Positions 42,755 to 62,121 of a stretch of 64,000 bases of DNA are shown here, piece by piece. Both the position numbers and the translations under genes were made by a program. A model generated the notes under the pieces. The model made no database searches. It was not told the origin of the DNA and was given only the letters and a program-made list of their open reading frames with translations. This DNA comes from an uncultured bacterium (GTDB lineage: Bacteria; Margulisbacteria; WOR-1; CAVSGV01): NCBI GenBank assembly GCA_963768305.1, contig CAVYHE010000003.1, forward strand, positions 256,001-320,000, written 5' to 3'. The first letter of the stretch is position 1. Each line of letters opens with the position of its first letter.

Positions 42755-43145
42755 TCAAGTTATCAAAAATCCCATATTATGCTTCCTGGTTGACCGCTCG
42801 ATGGTCAACTTGCGTATATCTCGCACCAATTCGCTGATGTTCGCGTCGTGCTTGAAGACGCGCTTTTCGAGCTGTTCTATCTTATGAGCAAGCGCTTGAT
42901 TGCCGGCTATCATCTGCCTCAGACGGATAAAAGCCCTCATTATCGCGACATTCACATACACGGCTCTTTTGCTACGAAGCACCCCTGACAACATGGCCAC
43001 TCCCTGTTCAGTAAAGGCTAAAGGAAGATATCTGGAGCCGCCCCAACTTGAGGTGTAATTTTTGCACCTCAAGATCTCATTGAATTCTTCCTTGCTCAAC
43101 TGGAACATAAAGTCGTCGGGAAATCGATCGATAGTTCCTTTTTTT
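42755..43145 (-). pseudogene. 5'-truncated ORF6N domain gene
   Basis: (KRN)IDRFPDDFMFQLSKEEF...WGG.RYLP.AFTEQGVAMLSGVLRS; similarity stops near 43145 at CCCTTAT-type low-complexity repeats. Confidence 0.8.
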
Positions 43146-43220
43146 TCTATCCCCTTATCCCTATATTCCCTTATCCCCTACCCCCTGCTTTATGCTACAA
43201 TTCCTCCGAGGTGATGCTTT

Positions 43221-43445
43221 ATGAACAAGGCTCAAACGCTCGTCCTCTGGATCGCAGGTCTTCTGATCACTGGGATCTTTTGCAACACAGGTCTTAATCT
43301 TCTCAGGCATGCGGCAGCGAACAAAGAACTGCTTGAAACGGGATATCCTTTCACGGTTGTTATTGGGACGGCCTGGACCTTCATCGCGCCGATAATAATT
43401 GTAGGAGTATTACTGGCGGTTTCGTTGAAGGGGCATGAGAAATAA
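43221..43445 (+). CDS. Small two-TM hypothetical protein
   Basis: GAGGTG RBS; two hydrophobic segments. Confidence 0.6.
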   Translation: MNKAQTLVLWIAGLLITGIFCNTGLNLLRHAAANKELLETGYPFTVVIGTAWTFIAPIIIVGVLLAVSLKGHEK

Positions 43446-43488
43446 AGAGATCACGATACAACTCAAAAATAAAAGGTGACATTTTCGT

Positions 43489-44121
43489 ATGAGTAATATA
43501 ATTTCATTTTTCAGCTTATTCGTAGCCATTGCTTCATTTTTTAGGGATAAGATTTTTGAGAACTTTAAGCCTGCATTAAAAATCGAAGCACAAAATAGAT
43601 CTCCGGATTGCGTAAAAACCCCCTTTTATACTCCCGATAGAGTCGTGAAAATTGATGGATATCAATTTCGCATAAGAATTATCAATGATAGTAAACAAGA
43701 AGCTACAAGAGTGAGGGTGACGGCAGAAAGGCTTGAGAAAATGGTTAATGGTAGTTTTGTTGCCGATAATAATTTTATCCCCTTATTTTTATTTTGGACC
43801 CATCATAGGACGACGGAAGTAAATATTTATAGTGAAACATATGCTTTTTGTGACTTTGGTATCATATATCACCCGCAAGGCCGCTTCGAAATTTATGGGG
43901 ACGATCCGACGCTACCTACAATATTGGAATTAGATACGACAGTAAAACCTTTCACAAAGAGCAATCTTATTCCACCAGGCAAATACTGGTTGACGATCAA
44001 AGTGTCGGGGTCAAATATTAAGCCTACAATCAAAAAGATTATTATTGATAACAGTGGGAAATGGTTTGACGATGAACGGGAAATGTTAATTCAAGGTACA
44101 ACAATTAAGGTTTTGGATTAG
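43489..44121 (+). CDS. Hypothetical protein, N-terminal TM anchor
   Basis: 210-aa AT-rich ORF with an RBS-like AAGGTG. Confidence 0.7.
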   Translation: MSNIISFFSLFVAIASFFRDKIFENFKPALKIEAQNRSPDCVKTPFYTPDRVVKIDGYQFRIRIINDSKQEATRVRVTAERLEKMVNGSFVADNNFIPLFLFWTHHRTTEVNIYSETYAFCDFGIIYHPQGRFEIYGDDPTLPTILELDTTVKPFTKSNLIPPGKYWLTIKVSGSNIKPTIKKIIIDNSGKWFDDEREMLIQGTTIKVLD

Positions 44122-44164
44122 TATTGCTCGTTTATGTTTTTTGTCTCAACACTCTATACATGCG

Positions 44165-44377
44165 TCATTTCAATCTTTCCCATATTTGTAAAACGAATCC
44201 TAATATAAGCAGAATGATTCCGGGCCAAAATACATACAAATTAATTATAGCAAAAGGGATGTTTATCGTATGCCACAAAAAATGACAGCCGGTTTCATAA
44301 GCCCCTGTGTTTTCAGAAACTGAAAAAGCAATAAATATACTTCCCAAAAAGTTTAAGATTAAACCTACTAAACCCAT
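44165..44377 (-). CDS. Small membrane hypothetical protein
   Basis: Hydrophobic GLILNFLGS...LGFVLQ pattern. Confidence 0.5.
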   Translation of the reverse strand: MGLVGLILNFLGSIFIAFSVSENTGAYETGCHFLWHTINIPFAIINLYVFWPGIILLILGFVLQIWERLK

Positions 44378-44452
44378 TTTATTGATTCGCTTTCTGCGCT
44401 CCCAAATAAATAGTATTCATATTTTGTGATTTCATTTATTGATGAAGTAAAA

Positions 44453-45378
44453 TGGGATTAAAGCCCCCTCCTCGAACTGTCAGCATCATTCTACAGAATA
44501 CAATTCATGGGTGCAAGAAGCTGAATCTGGGCCGTTCAGGATGATCATCAGATACTGTGAACTAACCTGGGAACTTCACAGTATCCCTTTATGCTCGACT
44601 GGAGCACACAGGCACGCACGCACGGGCGCAGGAGGCGCGGCCAGGCGCAAACCAGATTAGATATTTTATTAATTAACACAAGACAGATACATTCAAACAG
44701 TTGATAGACAGATGTTGCTCTTTAGCGTGAGAGAATAGACAGAGGATCAATGACGTTGGATACGAACACAAATGAGAGACAGAAGAACCTAACCCAATGA
44801 GTTGAAGACACGCTGGGAGCTTGAAGTTATTGCCGCTCAACTCCACCAAAGGAGCTTCTGGGATCCCCGAAAAGAAGACGCTACATTGCTGGCCTGCACG
44901 AATAACCATTCGGCTTGTGGCTCTTGCTGAATATGTTGATGACAGCTGCCGGCGCATAGAAAAAGAGCGACGGGTATTCGCAATCGTCATAGATAACCAA
45001 GCTGGTCGGACTGCTCTAACTGGTCGTTTCCAGAGAGGAATTAAGGCTTTGCTTGAACCTCCTCAAGTGATCGTTCGTTGTGTTCCTGTGTTGCCTTCTC
45101 CGTGGTCCCGCCAAAGGAGAATGACCTCTCCTTCGCTCTTCGAGCTACGAAGGGCTGGCAATTAAGGTGTGCTACGCACATTTGAAAGGGAAAGACCATA
45201 ATTCCTGCTCCGCCTTCGGCGGTATTTAACTTCGTGTCTTGCCGCCCGCCAATCCTTCGACAAGCTCAGGACAAGTGCCCGCCAAAAAAGAACCAAAGCT
45301 CCTGCTCCGACTTCGTCGGTATTTGACTTCGTGTTGTGCCGCCGCCCGCCAAACCTCTCCCAAAATGATGGTGGGGGA
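44453..45378 (+). repeat. Long inverted repeat, left copy (LIR-A), non-coding
   Basis: Aligns end to end with the reverse complement of 61048-61967. Confidence 0.95.
44551..44585. other. 35-bp palindromic site with an asymmetric core, in LIR-A
   Basis: GATACTGTGAACTA-ACCTGGG-AACTTCACAGTATC. Confidence 0.8.
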
Positions 45379-45445
45379 AAAACCTGGCACGTCATACTCA
45401 AAAAAAGTGGTGAAAAATGATACTAATTTAAGGCCGAAAAACCAC

Positions 45446-45506
45446 CGGTTATTTCACAGTATCCTATCGGGTATTTCACAGTATCGAGCGGTTAGTTCAC
45501 AGTAAG
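45446..45506 (+). repeat. Three 18-bp direct repeats at 22/21-bp spacing (operator- or iteron-like)
   Basis: CGGTTATTTCACAGTATC (45446), CGGGTATTTCACAGTATC (45468), CGGTTAGTTCACAGTAAG (45489); followed directly by TTGACT-18 bp-CATAAT. Confidence 0.85.
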
Positions 45507-45543
45507 TTGACTTTGTTGGCCACCCAAGACCATAATTCCCCCC

Positions 45544-47016
45544 ATGGCTGAAGAGCTGGAATACTTAACTCTTAATGAGATAAAAGCTTTTCTTAACTCC
45601 ATCGACGATATCCGCGACCGGGCGCTGATAACCCTATTTCTTAACACCGGCCTATTCCTGAACGAAATAACCTCGCTGAAAATTGATTCCGTCGACTGGA
45701 AGAATAAAATTCTGAATGTCCCCGGAAACCGTAAAAGGGCCATTCCTCTCAACGACCAGGTTTTTGATGCGCTTGCCAAATGGTCGAAGGAGCGTCCCTC
45801 GGGCAATATCTCCGAGCTTTTTGTCACAACAAAAGGCGCGCTGAAAGATCTGACCAGCCGCGGCGTAGATTATCTGATTAGAAAATACGCCGATCAAGCA
45901 GGCATCAAAAAAACGGGTCAATCCGCAGATACTTCGCAATACATTCGCAGTCCGGCTTTTCTCCGAAGAACCCTCCGTGGAAAAAGCTTCCGCCATTTTG
46001 GGCATATCCGATCTGGAATCGGTAAATCGCTATATAAGGGCCTCTAAATTGCCGCCGGCCAGGGTAGAGATAACTGAAAATCTTGAGCATATCGATACTC
46101 GCCATCCCCTTGTCAAAGCCGTTTCCAAAATGTTCCCGACAAAACCCAAAGCCGTTAAGCCGACGACCGAAATAAAAGGCCCAATAACTCCCAGCCCCGA
46201 AGAAGTGATCTTCGGAAGGGATAACATAATCGCCGACATAAAAGCCGATATCGCCAAAGGCCAGTCTGTTTTATTGACGGGTCCTCTGGGAATAGGCAAA
46301 ACGCATTTATTGAAGCACATGTTAAAAGTGCTTGGTCCTAATACAATATATATATCATCCCCAACCCCGCTTAAAACCGCCCTGATGCAAATACTCGTAA
46401 AACTTGATCCTGAATGGAATAAGACGCTGAATACAAGAGCTTCAACGAAAGATATAACCGACTATATTGTGAAAGATAAAAGGGGAAAAGCCTCCCGTCC
46501 TGCTTATCGACAATTTAAATAATATCAAGATTTCTGATATTGATCCTGTTTTAAGCTTTTTGAATAACTTCCCCGTACTTGCCGCGGCTGATGAAACAAA
46601 GCCCAAGCTGAAGCAGATATGGTGGCAGCTCAAACAGGTCGCGCTTCCGCCGTTAAATGAAGATGCCTCAAAGGAACTTATCAAATATCTTACGCAGAAC
46701 CTTACTATCAGCGATTATGAAATGCTTGAAACAAGGATATCTGACCCTTTCAAGCGGCCTTCCCATCGCGATCGTAGATATGGTCCGTCAAATAAGTCAT
46801 ATCCGGAAGATTTCAGTTGATGTTATTCGTGATGTTTATCACGAAGCCGGGATTCAATATCGCGACTGGACGATGGTAATAATCTTCATTTACTGGATAG
46901 CCGTCATTTTCAGGTTCCTTGCGCTCGGCACGAAAAGCTATGAGGCGTATTTCCTTGCAGGTTTCGGCGTAACTTTATTGATGATATTAAAAAATGTTAT
47001 GTCAATGTTGAGGTAA
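45544..47016 (+). CDS. Degenerate tyrosine-recombinase catalytic domain + AAA ATPase + C-terminal TM fusion (three apparent frameshifts)
   Basis: RDRAL..LFLNTGL...E, then PQILRNTFA and ILGISD...RY after a shift in the A-run near 45910; Walker A GPLGIGKT, Walker B LLIDN; two terminal hydrophobic helices. Confidence 0.7.
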
Positions 47017-47067
47017 AGGAGGGAGTTAAAAGAATTTAAGGGCTCAAATAATAAGAGGTGATAATAA

Positions 47068-47523
47068 ATGACAAGAAGAGAATTTATTGAAAAATGTTTT
47101 GGCAACAAACTTCAGGCAATCCCTTACAGTGAAGGCGACCATTTTAATGCTTTAGAGGAGGTCGAATCGCTACTTACTAAGCAAGGGCTTATTAATTTAG
47201 ATGAGAATGATATTGAGCAAATAACCAGTACAAGCGACAAGTTAGTGGCGATTTCTGCTGAGGCCCACGGAAAACATCGGTCGCACAGACTTGGTCACAA
47301 AATCCTTTCAAACATACCTGATTTCTTTTGGGATAAGAAACCCACAAATGCATTATTTAATATCACGGGAAGTCCCGATATAACACTAAATGAGGTTAAT
47401 GATGTTGCTGAACACATTTACGATTCAGTGAATCCCCACGCGAATATCATTTTTGGCGCGATTATCGATGAAAATAAAACCGATTACTTAAAAGCCACCG
47501 TGATATTCGGCGGCAAAAAATAG
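47068..47523 (+). CDS. Stand-alone FtsZ C-terminal domain protein
   Basis: GLINLDEND (T7-loop-like), NITGSPDITLNEV, ANIIFGAIIDE, ATVI; no GGGTG GTPase domain. Confidence 0.75.
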   Translation: MTRREFIEKCFGNKLQAIPYSEGDHFNALEEVESLLTKQGLINLDENDIEQITSTSDKLVAISAEAHGKHRSHRLGHKILSNIPDFFWDKKPTNALFNITGSPDITLNEVNDVAEHIYDSVNPHANIIFGAIIDENKTDYLKATVIFGGKK

Positions 47524-47540
47524 AAATGTGAGGTTAAAAT

Positions 47541-48107
47541 ATGGAACCAATTTTTACTTTATCCTTTCCGGAATATAAGGTTGTTCTGAAGTTATTGGGG
47601 CTCTATAAGCCAAAATATGGCTATTCAATATTATTGCCGTTGAGCAGGCAGCAAAAAGGCTTCGATCTGCTAATTTACAATTTAAATAAACATAGATCTG
47701 CTTCAATCCAGGTAAAAGGCTCTCGCTCATATGACGGACATAAAAACGATCCGCATGATTATAATCTTTGGTTTAAGAGGTTTAAATATAAAGAGGGTAT
47801 GGCCGATTTTTATATTCTGTTTAGTGTATATCCCCAATTGGCTTCTAATATAAAGCGTCTCGATCATTCAAGAAATACATCGCGTTACAGCTATTTATTC
47901 ATGCTATTAAAAGATGTTGAGATGGAGAAGCTCTTGGTTAACCTTAAAACTAAAAAAGGGAAAAGGGATAACTCTTTTCAGTTCGGTTTTGACTCTTCTG
48001 GCAGAAATATATTTCTGACCAGAGGTATTGGTAGGCAGAAAGAGAAGCCCTATAATAAATATCTGCTGGAGAACAGGGTCGATTTGATAAAGAAATTTCT
48101 GAAATAG
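47541..48107 (+). CDS. PD-(D/E)XK nuclease-like protein
   Basis: KGFDLL...IQVKGSR motif. Confidence 0.6.
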   Translation: MEPIFTLSFPEYKVVLKLLGLYKPKYGYSILLPLSRQQKGFDLLIYNLNKHRSASIQVKGSRSYDGHKNDPHDYNLWFKRFKYKEGMADFYILFSVYPQLASNIKRLDHSRNTSRYSYLFMLLKDVEMEKLLVNLKTKKGKRDNSFQFGFDSSGRNIFLTRGIGRQKEKPYNKYLLENRVDLIKKFLK

Positions 48108-48114
48108 GTAAATT

Positions 48115-49451
48115 ATGCTCGCACCCACCCATAGCGTATTCGGCATCTTTTTAACGCTGATATTCCTGGCGGTGTTCGGGATTCAGTGGAGCCTGCATTG
48201 GACGATAATTCTTGTTGCCATTTTTGGCTCGATCGTTCCCGACATTGACCATCCCCGTTCCGTCATAGGCAAGCTCTTCCCCTATATCTCCATCCCCTTA
48301 GAGCGCAGATACGGCCATAGAACGATAACCCATTCCTTCATCGGCTGGATAATTTCAACTGTCATTTTTGCTTTTCTTGTCTTGCTTGTAGTTTTGATAT
48401 TTAAATTTGTTTCGATTCTCGGACTTCCGTTTCGGGTTTTATCTTGGGCGGAGTCGAGGGCTTGGCTCCCCGCTGGATAGCCGCATTTTCAATATCTTAT
48501 TTTTCCCACCTGCTTTTGGACATGTTCAACAAGCGCGGCAGCCAGATGTTCTGGCCTAACCTCAGTCGTGATGTTATCCCGAAAAATCCAAAATACCGCC
48601 CTGAATCGGGCTCAAGCGTTGAGCCTTTTATCTTCATTATTCTTTTCATATTGATGCTTTTTGCTTTCCCGATCTCCAAATACGGGATAGCAAGTTCGCT
48701 TCGCTGGCTTATGGCTACTCCCGGCTCCGCCATGCAAGAATTCCAGTCCCTCAAGACCCATTCCTATGTTGATTTCAACGGCTATTACACGGAAACAAAA
48801 GAGCCGCTTGAAGGGACCGCAGAAATACTTGATGTAGACAAAGGACGGCTGGTAGTACTTTATAAGACCAAGATTTACACGTTAAGTGACGCTCTAGCCG
48901 CCGATATAACCGCCTCCCATGTCCGGCTGAAAAGGACGGATATTCCAATTAATATCACGCAGAAGATATTTAAGGATGAAAACCGCGATGAGTTGCTTGC
49001 TCAAATTCCTGCAGGCGCGCTTGTTTCGGGAACAGTTAAGCTCCCGGAAGGAATGGAGCTTCAATTCCCCGCCTTCCCCGGCTCTTATAAGCCAATGGAT
49101 CAGAAAAGCGGGAACCTGATCCTTTTATTCGCCTCAAAAGACCAAATTGAGAAGCTTGCCCTCACGGAAACCTTCGATCTGCTAAAAAGAAAGGACCAGG
49201 CCGACCTCGCCCAGCTGTACGCGCAGGCGGATAAGCTCAAAAGCCAGATATCGGAAGCGGAAACTGGCGGCGGACTAACTCCTTTGGGCCAGGAGCTTAT
49301 GATGAACAAGGATGACATCCAAAAGCAAAAAGCCCAGCTTGCCGATTTGAAAGGCCAGCTTGATGAAATAAATGTTAAAATTGAAGAGCTTCAATTGAAG
49401 ATAAAGGCCAGAAAGTTCGTTTTTTCAGGAGAGGTTTATTTAAGGCAATAA
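48115..49451 (+). CDS. YdjM-like membrane metal-dependent hydrolase with long C-terminal domain and coiled coil; frameshift near 48450
   Basis: M...TH, PDIDH, GHRTITHS, SHLLLDMF; heptad-rich C-terminus. Confidence 0.75.
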
Positions 49452-49462
49452 GGAGGCCTGAT

Positions 49463-49994
49463 ATGAGAAAATTAGTCGTTTATCTTGTAATAATGAGTTT
49501 ATTGTCCCCGCTTATCGGCTCTATTGCTTATGCTTTTGAGTATACCCTCGCCCCAAATGATACTCTTGAAGATCAAATTAATGCCAAAAGGACATGGATA
49601 CAAAGCAAACTATCGCTCCGGATGGCACAATTTCGCTTCCCTTCCTCGGAAGGGTCCAGCCTCAGGGCAAAACGCTCAGTGAATTTCAAACCTATTTAAC
49701 AACCGAACTTGCCAAATATGTGAACAAGCCTCAGCTTGTCGTTTATCTTAACGCCAAGATCGATATATGTCGTTCAGCATAATCTCAAGACGAATCTTTC
49801 AGAGGTAAGGAAGCTAAATCCATTGACAGAAGCTAAAGCATTATGCTGGCGAGGATTACACAAAAGAGATCAAATATGGCGATGTTATAACCGTCGATGT
49901 CGGCATTCAGCCTGATTGGTGGGAAACTAACTGGTACAAGGTCATATCCGCAACGGCTGTGCTCGTAGGAATAGATGCGGCATTAAAGAAATAG
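49463..49994 (+). CDS. Polysaccharide-export (Wza/Poly_export) domain protein, frameshifts
   Basis: Signal peptide, YTLAPNDTL, IAPDGTISLPFLGRV..QGKTLSE, YVNKPQLVV; C-terminal WWETNWYK hydrophobic tail. Confidence 0.65.
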
Positions 49995-50008
49995 GAGGGA
50001 GGTGACAA

Positions 50009-50776
50009 ATGAGCCCTAAACAAAGACCTGTAAACTTCGGCTGGATTCCTGATATCCCCGACCATCGCGATCATTTGTATGCCGCGCCTCTTGAATGGAT
50101 CGCAAAACTTCCCGCAAAGGTAGACCTCCGTCTCCAATGCCCTGATGTATACGATCAAGGCCAGTTAGGAAGCTGCACGGCGAACGCAATTGCCGGGGCA
50201 ATGGAATTTGAGCAGATAAAGCAGAAAGAAAAATATTTCATGCCCTCTCGCCTGTTCATTTACTATAACGAGCGAGCGATGGAACATACCGTCGAGTCCG
50301 ACAGCGGCGCGCAGATCCGCGATGGGATCAAAAGCGTCGGAAAGCAGGGTGATTGTCCCGAAAAGCTATGGCCGTATGATATAGCGAAATTCTCCCAGAA
50401 GCCGCCGGCGCCGTGCTACAAGAACGCCGTCAAGCACAAGGCGGTCTTATACCAGCGCGTAAGCCGTATTGCGAACCAGATGAAGGGATGTCTTGCGTCG
50501 GGATATCCGTTCGTGTTCGGATTTTCCGTATATGATAGCTTTATGAGCCCGGATGTAGCCAAGACCGGGCATGCCAAGATGCCGGAGCCGAAGGATAAAC
50601 TGGAAGGCGGTCATGCGGTAATGGCGGTCGGATATGATGATGAGAATCAATGGTTTATTGTCAGGAATTCGTGGGGAACGGGATGGGGAATGAAAGGATA
50701 TTTTACCCTGCCTTATGCATATCTGGCAGAAGAAAATCTTTCGGATGATTTTTGGACAATACGAATAGTGGAATAG
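50009..50776 (+). CDS. C1 family (papain-like) cysteine peptidase
   Basis: DQGQLGSCTANA, GGHAV, RNSWG...WG..GYF. Confidence 0.9.
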   Translation: MSPKQRPVNFGWIPDIPDHRDHLYAAPLEWIAKLPAKVDLRLQCPDVYDQGQLGSCTANAIAGAMEFEQIKQKEKYFMPSRLFIYYNERAMEHTVESDSGAQIRDGIKSVGKQGDCPEKLWPYDIAKFSQKPPAPCYKNAVKHKAVLYQRVSRIANQMKGCLASGYPFVFGFSVYDSFMSPDVAKTGHAKMPEPKDKLEGGHAVMAVGYDDENQWFIVRNSWGTGWGMKGYFTLPYAYLAEENLSDDFWTIRIVE

Positions 50777-50890
50777 AGGGTTTGGGTAAGGGGGCTCAAA
50801 AGATCGTTCTTCCGGTAGTTCCTCGAACTTAATTGAAAGATTGATAAGAAGTATATTAAGGTATATTATCGATAGAATAAATATTTTGTT

Positions 50891-51463
50891 ATGAGAAAGG
50901 CCAAAAGAATAAAAACCAATACCACAAGCTCAACCATACGAGAGAAGCTTCAAAGTCTTTCAGAAGACGATCTTAGGGTGTCCATAATCATTCCATTACT
51001 ATATGCACTAGGATGCACCGAAGTAAGAGATAATTGTGGCCCTGATGAGAAAGGTAAAGATATTATTTATAGTACTCCTCACTTATTGGGAGCTAATATA
51101 TATGGTGCGGTAATATTAAAAAATGATCGCAACCTCGGATTAGGTAAGATGGACAATTTGCGTTCACAAGCTCTTCGTGCCTTGAATGCATTCGGAAATC
51201 CCAGAGATCCTCGTATTGAAACGAAAGTGCATGAATTAATTTTTGTTACCTCATTTGACATTACAAGTGACGTTAGAGATTTCTTAGTGAAGAATTGTGG
51301 CAGTAATTTTCCAAATATGCATTTTGTTGACGGCGTCAGACTTGAGCTTTTAATAAGAAAAATAATTGATTTGTTCAAGAAACTCACTGGCAGAACATAT
51401 GTCTTCGATATTACCTCCTTTGCGGGAATGTGCGATAAAGTTAGGGAATGTAATTCGGAATAA
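50891..51463 (+). CDS. Restriction-endonuclease-like (Mrr-type) protein
   Basis: E..L...IIPLL.ALG...GPDEKGKDII...AV.LK, FVDG..L. Confidence 0.6.
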   Translation: MRKAKRIKTNTTSSTIREKLQSLSEDDLRVSIIIPLLYALGCTEVRDNCGPDEKGKDIIYSTPHLLGANIYGAVILKNDRNLGLGKMDNLRSQALRALNAFGNPRDPRIETKVHELIFVTSFDITSDVRDFLVKNCGSNFPNMHFVDGVRLELLIRKIIDLFKKLTGRTYVFDITSFAGMCDKVRECNSE

Positions 51464-51466
51464 AAT

Positions 51467-54400
51467 ATGAGTAAACACGGGCAAAACAATCAAAAAGGAG
51501 TATTCGCCCAAAATTGGGCTGCTCTGTCATTGTTTCTCCAATTCTATAAAGATCCGAAGTTTTCGTACATTCAACTTGAACCAAACACTTCGGAAGATTT
51601 TGATCTCGTCTTTAATGATGGGAAAAAGATTGTTTGCGAAACAAAATACAGGATAAAGAAGTTCAATTATGCAGATTTAAAGCTTTTACTTTCAAAGATA
51701 TTGGACCGGAAATCGATATCAGAGCAGGATGAAATATTAATAGTTTGTCGATCTGTTAATGAAACCTTAGCTTCGGATGTCAAAAATATCAGATTCTTTA
51801 ATCGTTTAGAAGAGAAATTCCTAGAGAAGAATTTTAATAAGCAAATGATAGGATTGATTCCAAGGGTTAGTTTTTGGGTTATTAATAAATCGTTACATAA
51901 GGACATTAATTTACCATTAATATCACAAGCAATAAATCTATGGCTTCCCCAACAAGACCTGAAGAAATTTACCGACCATATTATGCAAGATAAAATAATG
52001 CGATTGTCGACGCAAGGAAGAGCGTATAGCCGAAATGATTTTAATAATGAAATCAACAATCTAAATGCATATGTCTTGCAAAGCAGCGATAAGTTCAATA
52101 AAAGGTTAACACGAAAAGAGAAACAATTCAAAATGTTGGAAGACGATGTAAACAGGAACAAAGGGATTAAGTGGGGAACGGCCTCATCATCCGCCATTTC
52201 TGCTCAATGGGATTTAATGTCTTTTGTTTTAACAAAATTAAGGAAGAGAAACGATCTTGATCTCAAGAAATGGGATGATTTGTGGCAACTCAAAAGTGCT
52301 TTTCAGTTTATTTATACCGTTTTCGATATCTTTAAAAATAATATGGGGACTGAACAAAATATGACATATATCCTTGGATATATTCAAAGAGATATCAAGG
52401 GAATACGTGGTTTCTATGGCCATTCGGACTTCTTTAATCATGGAGTTGTTGAGCTTGTGACAAAGATAATTGATGCCCCAAGCGGGCATAAATATCTGAA
52501 AGAAGCATTTGCCATTGTTAAATATCTTATTAATTTCAATAAAGATGAATATTTCTATCTTAAAGATCGCGACCAGGATCGGGGCCAGTGGGAAAAGGAA
52601 GAAATATGTAAGTTAATAACGAAGATATATAAAATTGCCCCCCCTGAGATTAAGGAATCTGTTTTCCAGCTAATTACATCGGGATTTAACCTCACGGAAG
52701 ACGAAGGTGAATTTAGCCATTATGCGCCAAGAGAAGCTTTCGAAATTATCAGGGAGTGGTTAAATGAAGATTTTGTTAATAGAATCACTCCGCTAGTAAA
52801 TATAATTGTAGATCAATATAAAAGGTTTTATAAGAAGTTTGGGAAAAATATTGAATTTAAAGGCTGGGAGCTTATGGGCGGTGGAGTCGGAATCTGGGAG
52901 GGGAATTATCGTGTTTCAGATCGTCATTTTATTGAATATATCTTGTCACCAGCTATCAGAAAATATTATGAATCAAATAAAGCTGCCGGTTGGCAATTAA
53001 TACTAGATAAGTTTATTAGTAAGACAGCACAAGTTAGTTCTCACCAACCTGATTTCTTAAATAGAGCCGTTTTCGATATTGTATGCGAAAGATATGCAGA
53101 AGGAGATGAAAATTCTAATCGCCAAGCTTTCAAGATTCTTAAAGAGTTCATTCTTTCCCCCAAAGGGATTCCACATAAATCCGAACTAATCTATCAGAAC
53201 ATAGATCGCCCAACAATGTCTGACGAAAAGAAATGGAAGCTGGTTAAGATTATGACCGATAAATATGACATTCCTGCCAATCCTTTTATTGAGCCAATAG
53301 TTGCTGGACTAGTAAAGAAAGGGCATCCCAAAGCCAAACAGTTATTAATAGGGTGGTTTATGAACCCGAAATTCTATCCTCGATTCCCTTTTGATGGCAG
53401 ATATATCTCTACAATTAAGGGATTAATTGAAACAAACTTAGATTTATCAATTGATTTATTTAAAATCATAATGCGGAGTGAATATATTAAAACGGCAAAA
53501 TCAGAGCATTATGATGTTTATGATGTTGCAAACATATTATTTGAGATATTGAAAAGAGATTATGTGCAAGGTTTATCCATTATTCGAATGTTGGAATCCG
53601 AGAAGGCATTGAGCATCGATCAACAGATTATCTACACTTATAGCTTATGCAATTATCGTGGGAATGAAGACTCAGATGATTTAAATCTACTTATTAAAGT
53701 GTATGCCGATATTGTTGATCCATTTCTGACAAGGATGCATGATGATATTAATTCTATTAACCATGTATTGACTTTTGATAATAGCAGAGAAGCATTAATA
53801 CAGTTTGCCTCAAGGTTGGCTGCTAAGGGCAAAATCCATGAGGCATTAAGAATAGTTAAAGTCTTTTTAGATGATACCGATCCATATCTACCTTCTAACG
53901 CCCCAGTGGGTTATAAAATTGAATATAATGAACACCAAAGAATCGAAAGAGGAGAAGCGCCACTCACAATTACATCTGTGAGAGGATGGTGTGCGTGGAC
54001 TTTGATGAGATGTTCGGTTTTGTCTGGAAGAGAATACATCCCAATGGTAATTGAATTTACAAAGAAGTTGATTGAAGACAATAACTATTATGTTGTTCAT
54101 TTGGCATGTAATGCATTGGCTCACCTAGCTAGAAACCGTCTGACAGTATTGCCAAAGAATAGTGATATTATGTTCTTTAACGATGATAAGCGAAAAGCTC
54201 TGGAAATGGCAAAAGATGTCGAAAAAATTGCTTTTTCACTCCTAGATAGGTTTGTTGGCTGGCCAACTCCAGTTCAAAAGGCACTTATTAAAGATGTAAT
54301 ATATGTATTTGATAACATTACTCAGCTGAACGAATCAGATGCTACAAAATTAGTTACCAAATTAATAGGCTTGCCGAAGGAGGCCGTTGCAGAATCTGCC

Positions 54401-55096
54401 CCATTATTAATATTCTTTGCTGAAACGAGAAGAGATTGTTATGCAAAATGGAACACATATTATCCAGGATTATATGATGATCTTGGACCTGATAAATATA
54501 ACTCAGACATTTTCAAGAAGATTCTTACTGACACGATTAAATCCTTGATGAAGGATAATCCCAAAAATTGCTTTCGATTTGCCTCCACTTTTGAACACAT
54601 GTTGCGTCATGATGTCGAAAGAAAAGCCGACGCCGAGCAATCTACAAAACTGGGACTGAAATATTTTAGACTTTTGATGGAGCCTTACTCTCATTCAATT
54701 TATAACATTATCTTTCAGGTTATTCAAGATAGGATGAAAAATCCGGATAAATATTTAGATGAATGGTTTTTATTGTTCATAGAATGCTTAAATCTCGAAA
54801 ACAGATACTATGATAATGCGGTTAAAATGGGGAATCTTGAAAAGGTATTTTGGTTTCCTTCTTTCTATCATTCAGATATATTAGAATTAATCTATAAAGG
54901 AATGGGCCAAGATAAATTTATGAGGGCTGCAAAGATATTCTTTAATTTTCCAAAAGGAATGCAACTAGAAGAATCTTCAAAACTTGTTAATATAATTAAA
55001 GAATTATCAAAATCAGATAAAGAAGCGCAAAGGATCATTAAAACTCTAATCAAAAACAATCCTGGTAAATATTGGGATTTAAAAGAGAAGAAGTAA
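51467..55096 (+). CDS. 1209-aa protein: N-terminal Cap4/DUF4297-like nuclease plus long alpha-helical region
   Basis: G..N.KG..AQ...E...EDFDL...ETK at the N-terminus; no Walker A motif seen; intact AT-rich ORF. Confidence 0.65.
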   Translation: MSKHGQNNQKGVFAQNWAALSLFLQFYKDPKFSYIQLEPNTSEDFDLVFNDGKKIVCETKYRIKKFNYADLKLLLSKILDRKSISEQDEILIVCRSVNETLASDVKNIRFFNRLEEKFLEKNFNKQMIGLIPRVSFWVINKSLHKDINLPLISQAINLWLPQQDLKKFTDHIMQDKIMRLSTQGRAYSRNDFNNEINNLNAYVLQSSDKFNKRLTRKEKQFKMLEDDVNRNKGIKWGTASSSAISAQWDLMSFVLTKLRKRNDLDLKKWDDLWQLKSAFQFIYTVFDIFKNNMGTEQNMTYILGYIQRDIKGIRGFYGHSDFFNHGVVELVTKIIDAPSGHKYLKEAFAIVKYLINFNKDEYFYLKDRDQDRGQWEKEEICKLITKIYKIAPPEIKESVFQLITSGFNLTEDEGEFSHYAPREAFEIIREWLNEDFVNRITPLVNIIVDQYKRFYKKFGKNIEFKGWELMGGGVGIWEGNYRVSDRHFIEYILSPAIRKYYESNKAAGWQLILDKFISKTAQVSSHQPDFLNRAVFDIVCERYAEGDENSNRQAFKILKEFILSPKGIPHKSELIYQNIDRPTMSDEKKWKLVKIMTDKYDIPANPFIEPIVAGLVKKGHPKAKQLLIGWFMNPKFYPRFPFDGRYISTIKGLIETNLDLSIDLFKIIMRSEYIKTAKSEHYDVYDVANILFEILKRDYVQGLSIIRMLESEKALSIDQQIIYTYSLCNYRGNEDSDDLNLLIKVYADIVDPFLTRMHDDINSINHVLTFDNSREALIQFASRLAAKGKIHEALRIVKVFLDDTDPYLPSNAPVGYKIEYNEHQRIERGEAPLTITSVRGWCAWTLMRCSVLSGREYIPMVIEFTKKLIEDNNYYVVHLACNALAHLARNRLTVLPKNSDIMFFNDDKRKALEMAKDVEKIAFSLLDRFVGWPTPVQKALIKDVIYVFDNITQLNESDATKLVTKLIGLPKEAVAESAPLLIFFAETRRDCYAKWNTYYPGLYDDLGPDKYNSDIFKKILTDTIKSLMKDNPKNCFRFASTFEHMLRHDVERKADAEQSTKLGLKYFRLLMEPYSHSIYNIIFQVIQDRMKNPDKYLDEWFLLFIECLNLENRYYDNAVKMGNLEKVFWFPSFYHSDILELIYKGMGQDKFMRAAKIFFNFPKGMQLEESSKLVNIIKELSKSDKEAQRIIKTLIKNNPGKYWDLKEKK

Positions 55097-55138
55097 CTAC
55101 TTTTTTCGCTCCTAGTGCCTCAACCTTAACATGACAGT

Positions 55139-58100
55139 TTATTTCCTAAGAAAATCAATCTCATCGATCTCTTTCATGATTCTGTATGTTTCTGTCAGGG
55201 CAACAATCATTTTCTGATAATGTTCAATATCTTCATTTGATAGTTCCCGGCCTTTACGGTCCTTAAGCCATTTTTGTGCGGGCTGATAACCGCCGATGTA
55301 AAAGTTCCACGCAATTTCCGGCACTTTTCCAAAATATTGCTCTGCATTAATGTATATCTTGCCATCTTTATAGGTTACCTTTTCAACAGTATCTGAGCCG
55401 GAAGCGGGATATGTAGTAATATATTTATCCACTTTAGGAGATTCAAGCAGATGTAGTTCCCGCAACTCTGTCCCAAGTTTTACTAACTTTTTGAATGTTT
55501 TTGTGTCTTTCGGATATGGCACACGAGGAAAATCTATTTTCAAGAATTCTTTATACTTATTACGGTATCTAGGCGAATACAGAACAGCATAAATATAATC
55601 ATAAATATCTTCCGGATTTGTTTGGCCGATTATACTTTCTATTTTAATGGTAATTTCTTTGTTAAGGTTTGATACTCTTTCATCCCCTACAGGGTAAAGA
55701 TAAAGTGGAAAAACATATGTTTGATCACTAGCAGCATGAATATCGGCAATAGATTTAGAAACATATGCCCTATCAAAAGGTTGATTGGCCGGCATTGAAC
55801 GCGAAGAGAGTAAGGTGATATTATCTCTGCCAACAACATTCACATTTGTTTTTTCTCTTGGATATGCAATAAAGCCTTTTGAATTTCCACTATATGCTGT
55901 GTACCGCACATCAAAAGGACGATAAAGTATTTGTTCAATACTATACTTCTTGCTCAAATCCTCTTTTGCCCATTCGACTTTCCAATCTCGCCCATCTTCT
56001 GGCAATTGGTATTTACTTCTTATTTCTAAATCAGACAATGTTTGGAAATCATCAATTACTTTTTTAATGTCCTTTTTTGAAAATTGCACAGTAGTATCAT
56101 CGCGTTTCGTTTGAATGCCAGAATTGTATTCGTGAAATATTTCAGTTAAAGAAACCCCGTTTTTATATTGCTCTTCTAGCCCAAAATCCTTAGGAACAAA
56201 GAAATAATAAGGATCGTTATATTCAATGTTTTTCCATTTCACCTTTTCTATTTCGGTTTCACTGAGTATTTCATATTTCGCTTCCCGGCTGCCATATAAC
56301 TCTGAATGATAAACGACTCCTAGTCCCGTTTTATTTTCGCTTTTGCGGACAAATATCGAAATAGCCACTCCTTGTTGTATATCAAATACATTTTTATCTT
56401 CTTTATTCAGCTCTTTCTTTCTTGAACTCCCATGAAGATCAAGCACATATATCTTTTCAAAGGTTTCAAGCAAATGCTTCCTCATTTGGCGATGTGTAAT
56501 ACCATCCAAGAAAGAGTTATTAGTAATCATTGCAACAATGCCAGTTTTGTTTTTTTCAATAAAATGCTCTGCAAGTCGAATAAATTTAATATAATCATCA
56601 TCCAAGTTTATCTTTTTTTCGCCAAGACCTTTTTTGTAATCATCTAGTTTAGATAATATCCATGCCCCTTTATTCTTTGATTTTACATTGTAAGGTGGAT
56701 TACCCATGACCACCATAATCGGAGTTTCATTTTTAATCATATTCTGCCTGCTTTGGCCTCTTCTGCAATGCTTTCTGCCAAACCAAAAGCAAATCATAGC
56801 TTGTTGGTTTGCGCCTTCCTCAAGTGAATTAGTTAAATAAATTCCAAGACGATTATTAAACATTCTAAAATCCGATAATTTAAGTGCAATACTTAATTTA
56901 AGATGAGCGATAGTATATGGAGTCATCATTAATTCAAAGCCATGTAGACGCGGCAAAAGGTCATTATGTACATATGCTGGCCAGCTGCCCATCTTGGCCC
57001 TGTTCATTTGAGATATTCATATATGTTCCTGAATAGTTTCACTAATAAATGTCCCTGTGCCGACTGCCGGATCAAGAATTTGCACACGATGTTTCCCATT
57101 CGGTAGTTTTGATGCATCAGCAAGCCCATCTCGAAGCTGAAATCTTTTGCAAAATATGATCAACAGCATCGAACAATAAAATCGAACAACCGGCAATGGT
57201 GTATAAAACGCCCCCATTTTCTTATCGAAGTTCAGGATCATATTCTTTTAAAAAGTCCTCGTAAAAATGAATCACAGGATCTGGTGCATTCTTGTTTACC
57301 CACATAATCATCCCTATAAGTACTTCTATTAGTTATTTGAGTTTGCATGATGAAACAGATATCACAATTCATCAACGATAAACTTAAGCGCTTATCAAAA
57401 TCGGCCCCGGCGATATGATCAAAAAAATGTCTTAAAAATGGGTTAGATGCGGGAATTAAATCTCTTGCGCTTCTGACGTGAAAAAGTATCAGGGGTTTCA
57501 TCGTAATATCTTGCAACAAATAAGCCATAGACTAGAGTTTGGGCATACATATCGGCAAAAGCATTCCTGAGTCAGTCGTGAACAAGAGCTTTTTTATCGT
57601 TTCATATACACGCAATATCTCTGTATTTTTTTTGAATCTAAATCTGAAGAAAGATAATGCCTAATATTGTCCCTTATTCTTTGAGCCTTACCTCCCATGA
57701 TCTTTGCAAGGTGCTCACCTGACTTGATTGGCTCTTTTTGTGATTGTGTAAAGTCGATAAGGGTTTTCGCGACATGTTCATAATTTTCCGGTAAAGGTGC
57801 AATTGAACGTGTCTTAAGGTCATATTCTGCTATTTTTATTGGTTCTTCATAACGTTCTCCATTCCTATAAAACCTGAAATTCAAGATAATCCGTAAGAAC
57901 TAAATTCGTATAGCCATAATATCTTGCCATTTGCTCAGATTTTTCAACTTTATCTAATGGAACACCAATATCTTTTGCTTCAATATAGAGAATAGGGACA
58001 CTATTGTTGATTACGACAAAATCCGGTTTATTCCCTTCTGCTGCTCTTTCATCGTGGCCTATGCGTTGAACCTTTATCGTCTCAAATATTCCGTTTAACA

Positions 58101-58209
58101 ATATTTCAAAATCGGTACGGTAGCCCATCTCGCTTGTTTCTGTGTGGGTAAATTTAGAGGCAACAGACTTTAGATATTTGGACATTAAATCTTTTGTATT
58201 TTCTGCCAT
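55139..58209 (-). CDS. Type IIG / type ISP-like R-M enzyme (REase + N6-MTase + specificity domain), multiple frameshifts
   Basis: KPDF...YIEAK, GAFYTP, LDPAVGTGTF, GNPPY, YRPFD.R, IGGYQPAQKWLKDRK. Confidence 0.8.
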
Positions 58210-58724
58210 TGCTTTGAATTATACGCCCATAAGAAAAGAGAGTAAAGATTAGAAGTTCTTGCTCCCAGCCTTTTCTGTTTTGAATTTTATCCGTCGCTTT
58301 CTGTTGAAAACCACAAAACAGTGTTAATGAAATCGACGGCATCTTCAAGCGAAAACCCCAATTCCATGAGGAATTCGATTTTTCCCATCATTGTTATCAC
58401 CTTTGATTAGTATTATTTTGCTCCCCAGCCTTTCCAGTATAGCATTTTACCGCCTTTTCCCTGTAAAGAGCGCTCACGTTAGGACTTCGTATAAAGCTCT
58501 CTGTCCCGAAAAAATCCTCATCCTTGCGGATTTTTTCGGGGATTAGTTCGCGCTCTCCTCCAGTCGCCCGCCTCCGGCGAGGCTCCTTCCGGCCCTCCGC
58601 TCGTTGCGCTCTCTCGCCCATATATTAGCTTTAGGTAGGCTCAATCGCTCCACTCGCTTCGGGTGACAGGGGCGGTAAAATGCTGTTCCTTCCTATGTTT
58701 TCATTTCATAGGGAGGTGGTTTTC

Positions 58725-59257
58725 ATGTCTCGTTTGGCAGGTGTCATTGGTTCTCGTTCATTGCCCGCTTCTTTTGCTCCGCTTGTTTCCCGCGTTGTTT
58801 CTCTTCTTCTTTCCCGTGGCTACAGCATTGCCTCCGGCGGCGCCGTGGGCGCTGATTCATTTGCTCTTGAGGCTGTCATTCAGCAGGGGGCGGCTTCACG
58901 CGGCATCATTCATTCAGCTTGGGCTTCTGCTTCTGGCTTTCCTAGCGTCCGTTCAGCCTCAGGTTTCTCGCTTTCATTGCTTCCGGCGGTCAGGTTGTTT
59001 GGGGCTCGGCTCAGCCGGGTCAGTCCCGTTCTGCTGTTGTTTCAGCTCTTCTCGGCAGGAACAGGCGGCTTGTTTCTGCTTCCTCGGTTGTTGTTGCTTT
59101 CCTTCACGGCCAGTCTCGCGGCTCTCTTTACACAGTCCGTCAGGCCATTGAGCAGGGCGTTCCGGTCATTGTGTTCCTTTGCGGCGGCGGGGCGTCTTTG
59201 CCGGCTGATTTGGCTTCCAGGTGTTTAGTATTTACGGAAAAGGAGGTGTTATTATGA
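58725..59257 (+). CDS. SLOG/DprA(Smf)-like protein; two frameshifts
   Basis: GGAGG RBS; VIGSR, SGGAVGAD, then LLGRNRRLV, SRGSLYTVRQA. Confidence 0.7.
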
Positions 59258-59421
59258 GAATTTGCAGAGTGTGCGGTTCATTCCTCGTTCCTTGCAACGA
59301 AGGAATAGATCATATCGTCTTCTATCATCCTATCCTTCATAGGCATGTTTATATCTGTCAGACCTGTCTTACAGAGATTCAGAATATCCTCGAGTACGGC
59401 TTCCTCGCTCCCTGCGCTTAA
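59254..59421 (+). CDS. Small zinc-finger protein
   Basis: AAGGAGGT RBS; CRVC...CQTC; ATGA overlap with the upstream gene. Confidence 0.65.
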   Translation: MRICRVCGSFLVPCNEGIDHIVFYHPILHRHVYICQTCLTEIQNILEYGFLAPCA

Positions 59422-59548
59422 CCCAAAAGGCCTGATTCATCAAGAAACAGGCCTCTTTTTGGTCGCTACTCAGATTTGTTCTCACATATTACCAAATACA
59501 TATTTTGTTATATAAAACCGTCATAATTTAAGATAATATTAGTGTACT

Positions 59549-60304
59549 ATGAAATATGTTTATTTTGACGATAGCATTCATGATAGAGGCGGATTTATTA
59601 TTGGGGCATTTGTCTCTTTAACAAAAGACCCAGATACTGATCTATCAAATATATTAATCAATAATGGATTTGATCCCAACAATGATGAGTTTAAAAGTAG
59701 CACGCATTTTAAAGAATGTCCGAAAATGATTGATGTAAGAGATCAGCTGAAATCATATGTTAGAAATAATTGTGGAATAAGTATCATTGTGCTGCCCAGA
59801 AAAAATAGAGATAAATTAGGAGCTGAGACTATTAATGCCTTTCATAAAATGGTTCAATTCAATACAATAAACGATCCGATGAGCATATATTTTGACGAAG
59901 GGATATTCAAAAACATTAAAGATGGGCAGAAAATAGCCTCTCAATATTCTTTTGATAGATGCAACTTTAATTTTAAAACGAGCTCTGTAACATGCAAAGG
60001 GATACAGCTTGCCGATTTAGTTGCACATACTTGTTCGGTAATGTTATTAGATCAAATGGGCTTGATTAACAAAACAATAAAAGCAGGAGATAATTCTGGA
60101 TATGCTCCTGACACGGATATTGAATTGGGTTTTGAATTGTGGGCCTCTATAAGAGGGAATTTCTTTTGCAAGCAGAAAGCCGTTTCGTCTCCTTATTATA
60201 TAGTTGAGCCATATGGATTATATATTTCTCACTTATGTAGCAACTCCTTATCAATTAAAGCTCGAGAACGCTTTGGTGAAACATATCGCGGCTGTATTCA
60301 CTAA
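59549..60304 (+). CDS. DUF3800-like protein
   Basis: YFDDS start, YFDEG, GIQLADLVA. Confidence 0.7.
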   Translation: MKYVYFDDSIHDRGGFIIGAFVSLTKDPDTDLSNILINNGFDPNNDEFKSSTHFKECPKMIDVRDQLKSYVRNNCGISIIVLPRKNRDKLGAETINAFHKMVQFNTINDPMSIYFDEGIFKNIKDGQKIASQYSFDRCNFNFKTSSVTCKGIQLADLVAHTCSVMLLDQMGLINKTIKAGDNSGYAPDTDIELGFELWASIRGNFFCKQKAVSSPYYIVEPYGLYISHLCSNSLSIKARERFGETYRGCIH

Positions 60305-60403
60305 CGCCTGCTTATTTGGATTGACTTGCAGTATCGTTTACCCTAATTCATAATGCTGAAAATAAGATAAAGTCAAGGATAGAAAAGGGGTAATGAAAGG
60401 AAA

Positions 60404-60985
60404 ATGATGATGCTGGTTTTGATAAAATTAGCAATTTATTTGTTTTCGATATTTGTATTTTTTAAAGTCTTATCTTTATATTATGAATATCGTTCAACAA
60501 TAGTAACGGTTGCTAGCCATAACATTGGGGGGGGAGGCATAGGAACATTTTTAGGGGAATTAAAATGGAAGTTATTACGCTTTTGGGAAAAATTCAGAGT
60601 CTTTGTCCTCTTTATTCTTATTGCATATATTATTTTTGTGGCATTTGGGGATTATTGGACACGGATAATTTCATTTGCATTTTCTGTATATACCTTTGTA
60701 ATTAATAGGGATGCTTTTGATTTGTTAAGTTCTTATGGGTATGAAAAAAACAAAGATAAGTTAGCGATTGTTGAGAGATATTTATGGACACATTATAAAG
60801 ATGGCTGTTTTGAGAATTATGATATGGATTTAAGGAAAAGAGTAAATGGGTTTGATATCTATATAAAGATAGGCAAATATGATGTTGCCACTGAAGAAGC
60901 TAAACATAATCTTGAAAAATATGTGAGGGAAGCTTGTGGAATAGTTGGCCTCAATCTAAAATCAGTTATTGTTAATATTCACTAA
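60404..60985 (+). CDS. Membrane hypothetical protein
   Basis: AT-rich ORF with 3 hydrophobic segments. Confidence 0.6.
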   Translation: MMMLVLIKLAIYLFSIFVFFKVLSLYYEYRSTIVTVASHNIGGGGIGTFLGELKWKLLRFWEKFRVFVLFILIAYIIFVAFGDYWTRIISFAFSVYTFVINRDAFDLLSSYGYEKNKDKLAIVERYLWTHYKDGCFENYDMDLRKRVNGFDIYIKIGKYDVATEEAKHNLEKYVREACGIVGLNLKSVIVNIH

Positions 60986-61047
60986 TGAATGCCTTTGTTA
61001 CTGTCCAGATCCCATTTGTTTAGCCACTTTTTCAATACAAAATCCCC

Positions 61048-61967
61048 TCCCCCACCATCATTTTGGGAGAGGTTTGGCGGGCGGCGGCACAACACGAAGA
61101 CAAATACCGCCGAAGGCGGAGCAGGAGCTTTGGTTCTTTTTTAGCGGGCTTTACCCTGAACTTGTCGAAGGATTGGCGGGCGGCAAGACACGAAATTAAA
61201 TACCGCCGAAGGCGGAGCAGGAATTATGGTCTTTCCCTTTCAAATGTGCGTAGCACACCTTGATTGCCAGCCCTTCATAGCTCGAAAAGCGAAGGAGAGG
61301 TCATTCTCCTTTGGCGAGATTACGGAGAAGGCAACACAGGAACACAACAAACGATCACTTGAGGAGTTTCAAGCAAAGCCTTAATTCCTCTCTGGAAACA
61401 ACCAATTAGAGCAGTCCGACTAGCTTGGTTATCTATGACAATTGCGAATACCCATCGCTCTTTTTCTTGCGCTGGCAATGGTCATCAACATATTGAGCAA
61501 GAGCCACAAGCTGAATGGTTATCATGCAGGTTAGAAATTAGCGTCTTCTTTTCAAGGATCTCAAGAGCTTCTTTGGTGAGTTGAGTGGTAATAGCTTCAA
61601 GCTCCCAGCGTATCTTCAACTCATTGGGTTAGGTTCCTCTGTCTCACATTTGTATTCATATCCAATGTCATTGATCCTTCGTCTTTCTTTCACGCTAAAG
61701 AGCAACATCTGTCTATCAACTGTTTGAATGTATCTGTCTTGTGTTAATTAATAAAATATCTAATCTGGTTTGCGCCTGGCCGCGCCTGCTGCGCCCGTGC
61801 GTGCGTGCCTGTGTGCTCCAGTCGAGCATAAAGGGATACTGTGAAGTTCCCAGGTTAGTTCACAGTATCTGATGATCATCCTGAACGGCCCAGATTCAGC
61901 TTCTTGCACCCATGAATTGTATTCTGTAGAATGATGCTGACAGTTCGAGGAGGGGGCTTTAATCCCA
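61048..61967 (-). repeat. Long inverted repeat, right copy (LIR-B)
   Basis: Reverse complement of 44453-45378; the 35-bp palindrome is at 61835-61869. Confidence 0.95.
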
Positions 61968-61983
61968 CATAATTATAGCTGCG

Positions 61984-62016
61984 AACCGCTGTGTTTTCTA
62001 AACCGGCGGTTTTTTC
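61984..62016 (+). terminator. Intrinsic-terminator-like hairpin just outside LIR-B
   Basis: AACCGCTG...CGGCGGTT followed by a T-run. Confidence 0.5.
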
Positions 62017-62121
62017 TTTGCGGGAAATAGCGCGGCGGGCGGCGTTTGCCGCTACCCAAACGCCGCCCGCCGAATGTTCGCCGCGTCGGGACACATTGTT
62101 GTTTTAGATGAGGTTTGAATT

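Follow-up and report, generated by a model that had tools for sequence, protein, structure and literature searches.

A predicted stand-alone C-terminal half of FtsZ carried as cargo of mobile and defence islands

We describe a 151-aa gene that encodes the C-terminal half of FtsZ and nothing else, found in a 64,000-nt stretch of DNA from an uncultured bacterium (hereafter the window, meaning the whole stretch that was analysed). Judging from alignments, the gene product is a member of a rare conserved family of short FtsZ_C proteins. Its members are carried as cargo by mobile or defence islands, and they probably interfere with, or mimic, host FtsZ. As a tentative mechanism, we propose that the window protein would be an inducible capper or sequestrator of FtsZ, one that binds FtsZ and arrests division in response to a trigger. 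The support for this proposal comes from homology, fold, family, selection, island context and, in relatives, linkage to a WYL regulator and a promoter element.

Results

The short gene and its product

The gene lies at 47068..47523 on the forward strand and starts with ATG. The Shine-Dalgarno-like sequence AAGAGGTGA (47053..47061, forward strand), read directly from the DNA, has as its core GAGGTG (47055-47060), which lies 7 nt before this codon. The intact 151-aa frame with its own ribosome-binding site that a first-pass annotation had claimed is therefore present. The ORF spans an S6/H7 remnant, the T7 loop and the whole C-terminal subdomain; the GTP-binding domain, the linker and the C-terminal tail are all missing. 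The peptides quoted in that annotation (GLINLDEND, NITGSPDITLNEV and ANIIFGAIIDE) all occur in the translation. The first of them is the T7 loop, residues 40-48, encoded at 47185..47211 (forward strand), and its NxDxxD residues N43, D45 and D48 are intact, again as claimed.

Pfam, the PDB and the predicted fold agree with the proposed match to the FtsZ C-terminal half. Pfam FtsZ_C (PF12327), the model suggested as a check, matches residues 93-149 with an E-value of 5.4e-15 and 55.9 bits, passing its gathering cut-off of 27 bits. Using phmmer, we found that 49 FtsZ chains in the PDB match the ORF at E ≤ 4.3e-4, the best being M. tuberculosis FtsZ (E 2.8e-13), where residues 26-149 of the query correspond to residues 188-311 of FtsZ. 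The tubulin/GTPase domain (PF00091) gave no match in Pfam at E ≤ 0.1, in keeping with the earlier claim that the GTP-binding domain is absent. The NCBIfam ftsZ equivalog model TIGR00065 scored 51.6 bits, below its cut-off of 295.2. The homology to canonical FtsZ spans residues ~155/188-318. In an alignment with the FtsZ of its own genome (38% identity), the ORF corresponds to the part that begins near residue 155 and finishes with strand S10, with an 11-residue deletion in helix H7; N43, D45 and D48 pair with the N, D and D of the host NLDFAD. The ORF ends 2-3 residues after S10, and host FtsZ runs about 35 residues further.

The AlphaFold2 model of the protein, computed from 50 aligned sequences, has a mean pLDDT of 90 and a pTM of 0.85. 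Its top PDB matches in Foldseek are all FtsZ (E ~1e-11, TM (query) ~0.7), with an rmsd of ~2 Å over ~120 residues. An FtsZ_C fold is thus predicted with high confidence, contrary to the possibility, raised with the annotation, that there might be none. Canonical FtsZ and the short protein have the T7 loop and the predicted fold of the C-terminal subdomain in common; the short protein is island-borne and sporadic, whereas canonical FtsZ is a core gene. As it lacks three of the five defining features of canonical FtsZ, we filed it as a separate family within the superfamily. Alone, the 151-aa protein has no capacity for GTP binding or filament extension.

Distribution of the short FtsZ_C family

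FtsZ_C matches three genes in the genome that holds the window (G000; 1.53 Mb in 16 contigs, 86% complete), namely a normal 351-aa ftsZ on contig C6, the window ORF and a second short copy of 112 aa on contig C7 (L046:85-423, reverse strand), directly downstream of an intact tyrosine integrase. This second copy is without its first ~40 residues, T7 loop included, and no upstream remnant of it was seen in other frames. With G000 included, the phylum set contains eight short copies, spread over 6 of its 146 genomes, and all six belong to the window's class. The intact homologues outside G000 measure 141-151 aa and come from five of the 146 genomes searched: G004 has two copies (56% and 45% identical to the window ORF), and G001, G101, G118 and G107 have one each (42%, 39%, 37% and 31%, respectively). 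A short match in G113 was left out of the family count because it sits at a contig end and is the sole FtsZ match of that genome.

Using a profile built from the eight short proteins against 1.84 billion representatives, we recovered about 12 further full-length clusters (145-155 aa, clustered at 50% identity) and one 296-aa fusion protein (P0139). Family members cover profile positions 1-147 with E-values of 1e-57 to 1e-21, whereas canonical FtsZ begins at position 18 at least. The family is rare: each of the ten clusters examined comprises one or two sequences, and the contigs that bear them measure 0.7-5.4 kb. Its proteins have no domain match other than Pfam FtsZ_C, and the family hallmarks are a length of 141-155 aa, an N-terminal F-x-N-K-[LVI]-x-x-[IV]-P motif, a shortened H7 and an end after S10. 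In alignments the window ORF has every one of these hallmarks, and it matches the profile over the full length.

A pattern scan of IMG/VR returned 126 pattern matches, none of which was confirmed as a family member. With tblastn, 50,697 phage records gave 18 matches and 72,556 plasmid records gave 78; in both sets, those listed have at most 34% identity and a query start of at least 15, and they therefore look like canonical FtsZ. A word-based protein search returned the query itself and FtsZ fragments of at most 40% identity (one reached 52% over 36% of the query). Fourteen matches of the word search were rejected as family members, being pieces of canonical FtsZ with linker and tail, mostly on long contigs. 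In the openly accessible full-text literature, neither a stand-alone rear half of FtsZ nor FtsZ-derived defence genes were found.

Divergence and selection

When 8 short and 26 host rows are placed in a maximum-likelihood tree, the short rows fall on one side of a branch with a support of 91/86, and seven of the short sequences form a clade (96/88). A single origin of the short copies would be compatible with this tree, in which long branches make attraction possible. The dN/dS ratio is 0.139 between the second G004 copy (G004b) and the G001 copy (dS 1.07) and 0.124 between the window copy and the first G004 copy (G004a), the latter at a saturated dS of 2.3; for host ftsZ it is 0.04-0.055. By these codon comparisons, the family is under purifying selection. 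The ratios of ~0.12-0.14, the divergence of the family and the position of the short rows apart from host FtsZ in the tree argue against a recent ftsZ fragment free of purifying selection, an origin that the first-pass annotation had allowed for and that we rejected. A split FtsZ was rejected as well, an orphan tubulin/GTPase half being absent from the five genomes checked. Canonical ftsZ is the only tubulin-domain gene above the Pfam cut-off in each of five short-copy genomes (G118 has one extra weak match below it, E 0.005), and the short protein is thus not half of a split paralogue.

The short proteins evolve much faster than their full-length counterparts. In the comparison of the window copy with G004a, dN is 0.29; for host FtsZ in these two genomes it is 0.05. 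Within the family-level taxon the host FtsZ cores are 93-94% identical, and the short proteins share 42-56% identity with the window copy. An arms race would account for this fast divergence no less well than docking on a near-invariant surface. Among 19 family members, the residue equivalent to D212 is D in 18, that equivalent to N207 is N in 12, and that equivalent to D209 is D in 9; with the latter two kept in only 12 and 9 members, GTPase activation is not a conserved property of the family. The GLI motif before the T7 loop is conserved at 84-100%, and the S8-H10-S9 block stays FtsZ-like across the family. P19 (95% of members) and F11 (79%) are not FtsZ residues.

The window island

The short gene sits in a low-GC mobile/defence island that extends from after the iPGM gene to at least the end of the window (42755..64000). 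GC content falls from ~0.49 to 0.35-0.45 past ~42 kb, and this drop, together with the flanking integrase, serine recombinase, restriction-modification and ORF6N genes, bears out the earlier description of the gene as island cargo. The island carries a papain-family (C1) peptidase gene (50009-50776, forward strand), a 1209-aa ORF (51467-55096, forward strand) with no match in Pfam, PADLOC or NCBIfam, a truncated type IIG/ISP restriction-modification gene (55139-57007, reverse strand) and a large serine recombinase gene (62920-63999). It also holds an ORF6N fragment, a DprA-like fragment and DUF3800. The papain-family peptidase is 85% identical to one located 1.4 kb from the second short copy of G004, and ORF6N genes are common to the two islands.

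Two of the island genes are broken by frame changes. The upstream integrase-ATPase gene (45544..47016, forward strand), which encodes a tyrosine-recombinase catalytic domain, a P-loop ATPase and a hydrophobic C-terminus in this order, takes three frame changes to read through. A downstream gene for a YdjM-like membrane protein is split into two overlapping ORFs (48115..49451, forward strand) by a single frame change, and its counterpart in G004 is intact (451 aa). The breaks in both genes may be real decay or assembly errors.

Located 18 nt downstream of the short gene, a 188-aa gene (47541..48107, forward strand) may be its operon partner. Its product has a predicted PD-(D/E)XK (restriction-endonuclease-like) fold. 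The AlphaFold2 model (pLDDT 84) aligns best with I-Ssp6803I in VIA-align (Z 10.2), followed by RecU, Hjc and restriction enzymes (Z 5-7), and an Atlas lead points to PDDEXK_5/NOV_C/DpnI; Foldseek alone gave no match at E ≤ 0.001. E11, D42 and Q57 never vary among 15 homologues, which also retain K/R59. The 188-aa gene was rejected as a conserved partner of the family, since it occurs in 2 of 146 genomes and no other genome with a short gene is among them. It has no sequence similarity to the PDDEXK_5 gene that neighbours the short gene in G001.

The window contains further features of its own. An 18-nt repeat, GGTTAnTTCACAGTAT, is present in four copies at 44551-44585 and 45446-45506. Three of the copies are in tandem with a spacing of 21-22 nt just upstream of the broken integrase gene, and inverted copies lie ~880-920 nt away; the arrangement looks like recombinase sites bounding a 0.9-kb segment that could be invertible or excisable. 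A 52-nt direct repeat occurs at 45195 and 45292. Rfam found nothing in positions 44300-45600, and a scan for consensus promoters and terminators gave no useful excess over shuffles. A 6S RNA (Rfam RF00013, 61.6 bits) lies at 7983-8138 (forward strand), within the core part of the window.

Neighbourhoods in related loci

In PADLOC-DB 2.0, no family matched the window ORF at E ≤ 0.001, and no member of the short family matched any model. The neighbours in related loci match PADLOC models for AbiU, Old/GajA/AriA, WYL, type IIG restriction-modification and Cas4-like proteins. Six related loci and one HNH fusion lend weight to the idea that homologues reside in defence islands.

At the G004a locus, about 8 kb from host ftsZ, a type IIG restriction-modification gene, a PD-(D/E)XK gene and a WYL regulator precede the short gene, and an accessory ClpP-like gene, a DprA-like gene, an IrrE-like peptidase, an ECF sigma factor and a serine recombinase follow it. 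The accessory ClpP-like gene (L039:10491-11072, forward strand) is diverged and starts 14 nt past the short gene; it scores 172 bits compared with 297 for the housekeeping clpP, which is located elsewhere. At the G004b locus, close to smpB, the order is a DpnII-type restriction-modification gene, a GIY-YIG-like gene, an OLD/GajA/AriA-like nuclease and the short gene, with 23S-IVP, ORF6N and peptidase C1 downstream. In G101 a WYL gene and an AbiU/AIPR gene are followed by the short gene and a 102-aa ORF; in G118 the series is a WYL gene, two unknowns, the short gene and a homologue of the same ORF. This conserved 102-aa ORF has no match in the PDB, Pfam, NCBIfam or PADLOC. In G001 the short gene is immediately preceded by a PDDEXK_5 nuclease gene, 54 nt away. 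The fusion protein P0139 (L049:1173-2063, forward strand) joins an HNH nuclease, a coiled coil and a short FtsZ_C domain, and a Doc/Fic toxin with an HTH gene lies divergently upstream of it. Altogether, a nuclease adjoins or is fused with the short protein in four of nine contexts (the PD-(D/E)XK gene of the window, PDDEXK_5 in G001, OLD in G004b and the HNH fusion in P0139).

A WYL regulator and a promoter element in three relatives

G004, G101 and G118 each carry a single WYL gene (HTH-WYL-WCX) on the same strand as the short gene and 0.15-1.9 kb upstream of it, and the three regulators are mutually 58-61% identical. The WYL gene of G001 sits elsewhere, away from the short gene. G000 (86% complete) yielded no WYL gene, and the window island yielded no promoter element; this control has either been lost from the window copy or was never there.

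The element in question, CGTARTGTCATACCYCTCnTGyCATAATTAC, is ~30 nt long, ends in a -10-like box and lies just upstream of the short gene in G004, G101 and G118. In these three genomes an exact 16-mer of it occurs only at those three promoters and at one more site in the G118 island. Allowing up to 2 mismatches, the G118 island (L043, G118:C27:57000-76999) has five copies, at 3426 and 4556 on the reverse strand and at 9692, 10286 and 10621 on the forward strand. Copies lie ahead of a DnaB_C/AAA_25-like ATPase gene, the short gene, a small downstream ORF and one further unit, and another lies upstream of a gene for a 248-aa protein with the DnaA ATPase domain only, full dnaA being elsewhere. 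The set is possibly a regulon of partial paralogues of essential proteins, as far as the placement of the element indicates. Orthologues of the WYL regulator (at least 50% identity) are present in five further genomes without a short gene, where they lie next to AAA_2 ATPases, a DnaB_C-like gene, GmrSD, AbiEii and a DprA-like gene. The WYL-linked island cassette thus carries several cargo genes that can replace one another, the short gene among them.

Discussion

Candidate mechanism and its alternatives

In a filament of FtsZ, the T7 loop (NxDxxD) of one subunit completes the GTPase site of the next. The family, whose proteins of ~148 aa derive from FtsZ, has shed the linker and the C-terminal tail as well as the GTP-binding domain and part of H7, and has retained the face whose T7 loop enters the GTP pocket of the adjoining subunit. 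The window ORF would be a functional member of it. Once expressed, in some relatives presumably under the WYL-type regulator, the T7/bottom face of the protein would dock onto host FtsZ, either free or at a filament end, at the nucleotide (top) face of the latter. As the short protein has no top face of its own, the filament would be ended or monomers would be sequestered, and Z-ring assembly and division would stall. The window copy keeps all three T7 residues and could therefore also set off futile hydrolysis of GTP. Whether it is active at present is uncertain, since it has neither the WYL regulator nor the promoter element and sits among broken genes. We give this account of the window protein as an FtsZ capper or sequestrator a little less than an even chance. 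The first-pass annotation had likewise suggested capping or depolymerisation of host FtsZ, or a decoy for phage FtsZ inhibitors.

A simple capper does not explain the nucleases that adjoin or are fused to the short protein. These contacts, the drift of the T7 loop and the fast evolution against a near-invariant target all count against it, and they favour a different account, somewhat unlikely in our estimation, in which the short protein would be a decoy or sensor. It would mimic the T7/H10 face that phage-encoded or other FtsZ-targeting proteins hit, the face on which SulA, MciZ, MinC and MipZ also act, and would either soak these attackers up or report them to an adjacent or fused nuclease, leading to abortive infection. 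The P0139 protein, with its HNH nuclease joined via a coiled coil beside a Doc/Fic toxin with an HTH gene, fits this, as do the same-strand adjoining nucleases of the window (18-nt gap), G001 and G004b and the AbiU/AIPR gene that is the upstream neighbour in G101. Fast evolution next to a nearly invariant host FtsZ points the same way, and PMC9897490 describes known inhibitors as binding the H10/T7 region that the short proteins retain. Yet no partner is conserved across the loci (the 188-aa neighbour is in 2 of 146 genomes), the neighbours may be independent defence genes that share an island, and no sensed phage protein is known for these uncultured hosts. In addition, the near-invariance of the D212-equivalent is more directly explained by contact with a nucleotide pocket.

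T7-loop drift can also be read as loss of contact with FtsZ altogether. The C-terminal subdomain might have become a general adaptor or regulatory subunit in WYL-controlled cassettes, no longer touching FtsZ or the proteins that bind FtsZ. We regard this as unlikely. It would account for two of the three T7 residues drifting while most of the conserved positions belong to the core shared with FtsZ, for the family-specific P19 (95%) and F11 (79%), and for the WYL orthologues in five genomes without the short gene, which make the cassette independent of that gene. However, the GLI motif, the D212-equivalent and S8-H10-S9 have stayed FtsZ-like over deep divergence, and the co-regulated neighbours in G118 include the 248-aa protein with only the ATPase domain of DnaA, a partial paralogue that suggests mimicry of host machines as a theme. 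The family may also be real while the window copy itself is decaying and no longer has a function. The three frame changes of the integrase-ATPase gene, the split YdjM-like gene and the truncated restriction-modification gene would agree with such decay, and so would the C7 copy of the same genome, which lost its first ~40 residues including the T7 loop, and the absence of a WYL regulator and promoter element beside the window copy. We nevertheless consider it quite improbable: the frame is intact and of full length, its ribosome-binding site is strong, every conserved residue of the family is present, and dN/dS is ~0.12 against the nearest relative, a value averaged over a long history.

Comparison with known regulators

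The proposed capper or sequestrator would have the same outcome as SulA, MciZ, MinC and MipZ, that is, sequestration or end-capping of FtsZ, and some of these inhibitors are likewise stress-induced or carried by mobile elements. Kil and DicB, for instance, are prophage-borne FtsZ inhibitors. The short protein differs from SulA, MciZ, MinC and MipZ in that they are unrelated to it in sequence and fold, and in the surface that it would use: inhibitors with known sites bind the C-terminal T7/H10 face at the plus end, whereas the short protein would bind the opposite, nucleotide face. According to PMC9897490, the C-terminal polymerisation interface is the plus end, MciZ, MinC and MipZ act on the H10/T7 region, and sequestration and capping are the known modes of FtsZ inhibition.

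Regulation in the G004, G101 and G118 loci may resemble that of DriD and DidA. The WYL regulator DriD turns on the division inhibitor didA after DNA damage, with ssDNA as the signal, according to PMC9186387 and PMC4211646. The logic of a WYL sensor acting on a division brake would be the same in both cases, but DidA is a small membrane protein not derived from FtsZ, and the window copy has no WYL partner. Moreover, the promoter element is confined to the island, which, unlike the DriD-DidA case, indicates that there is no genome-wide damage regulon.

Truncated paralogues of essential NTPases offer another comparison. Hda, a paralogue of DnaA with the AAA+ domain only, inactivates DnaA by supplying a hydrolysis-activating element. 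The short protein could be analogous in being a truncated paralogue that acts on the full-length protein; Hda belongs to another superfamily, and the parallel is one of analogy only. A possible point of contact is the 248-aa DnaA-ATPase-only gene of G118, which shares an island with WYL-linked promoters with the short gene. Extra, shortened FtsZ copies are also known in Agrobacterium (FtsZ1 and FtsZ3), and they keep the GTPase domain and lose C-terminal parts, whereas the short family is the reverse, a rear half only. Overexpression of FtsZ1 of Hyphomicrobiales (Agrobacterium) inhibits division, as stated in bioRxiv 10.1101/2025.09.29.679267.

Meaning for the islands and for FtsZ

On a wider and, in our view, doubtful reading, the defence or stress islands of this class might carry a toolkit of half-proteins fired from a shared WYL-linked promoter, in which the FtsZ half caps the nucleotide face or serves as a decoy that arms nucleases upon phage attack. 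Examples in such a toolkit would be the rear half of FtsZ, the DnaA ATPase-only protein, the DnaB_C/RecA-like ATPases and the extra ClpP.

The regulation of FtsZ is a central problem of bacterial cell biology, and FtsZ is an antibiotic target. The natural protein inhibitors covered in PMC9897490 are not related to FtsZ, whose T7/H10 face they target. An FtsZ fragment shaped by natural selection that shows the T7/H10 face itself would be a new class of regulator and, if the proposal is true, the face that it caps would be opposite to the target of every inhibitor with a mapped site. Such a fragment would be a ready probe for the nucleotide end of the filament, with which ideas on polarity and treadmilling could be tested. 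The link to WYL regulators, nucleases and other partial paralogues hints that these islands may arrest their host, or bait phage factors, with crippled copies of host machines.
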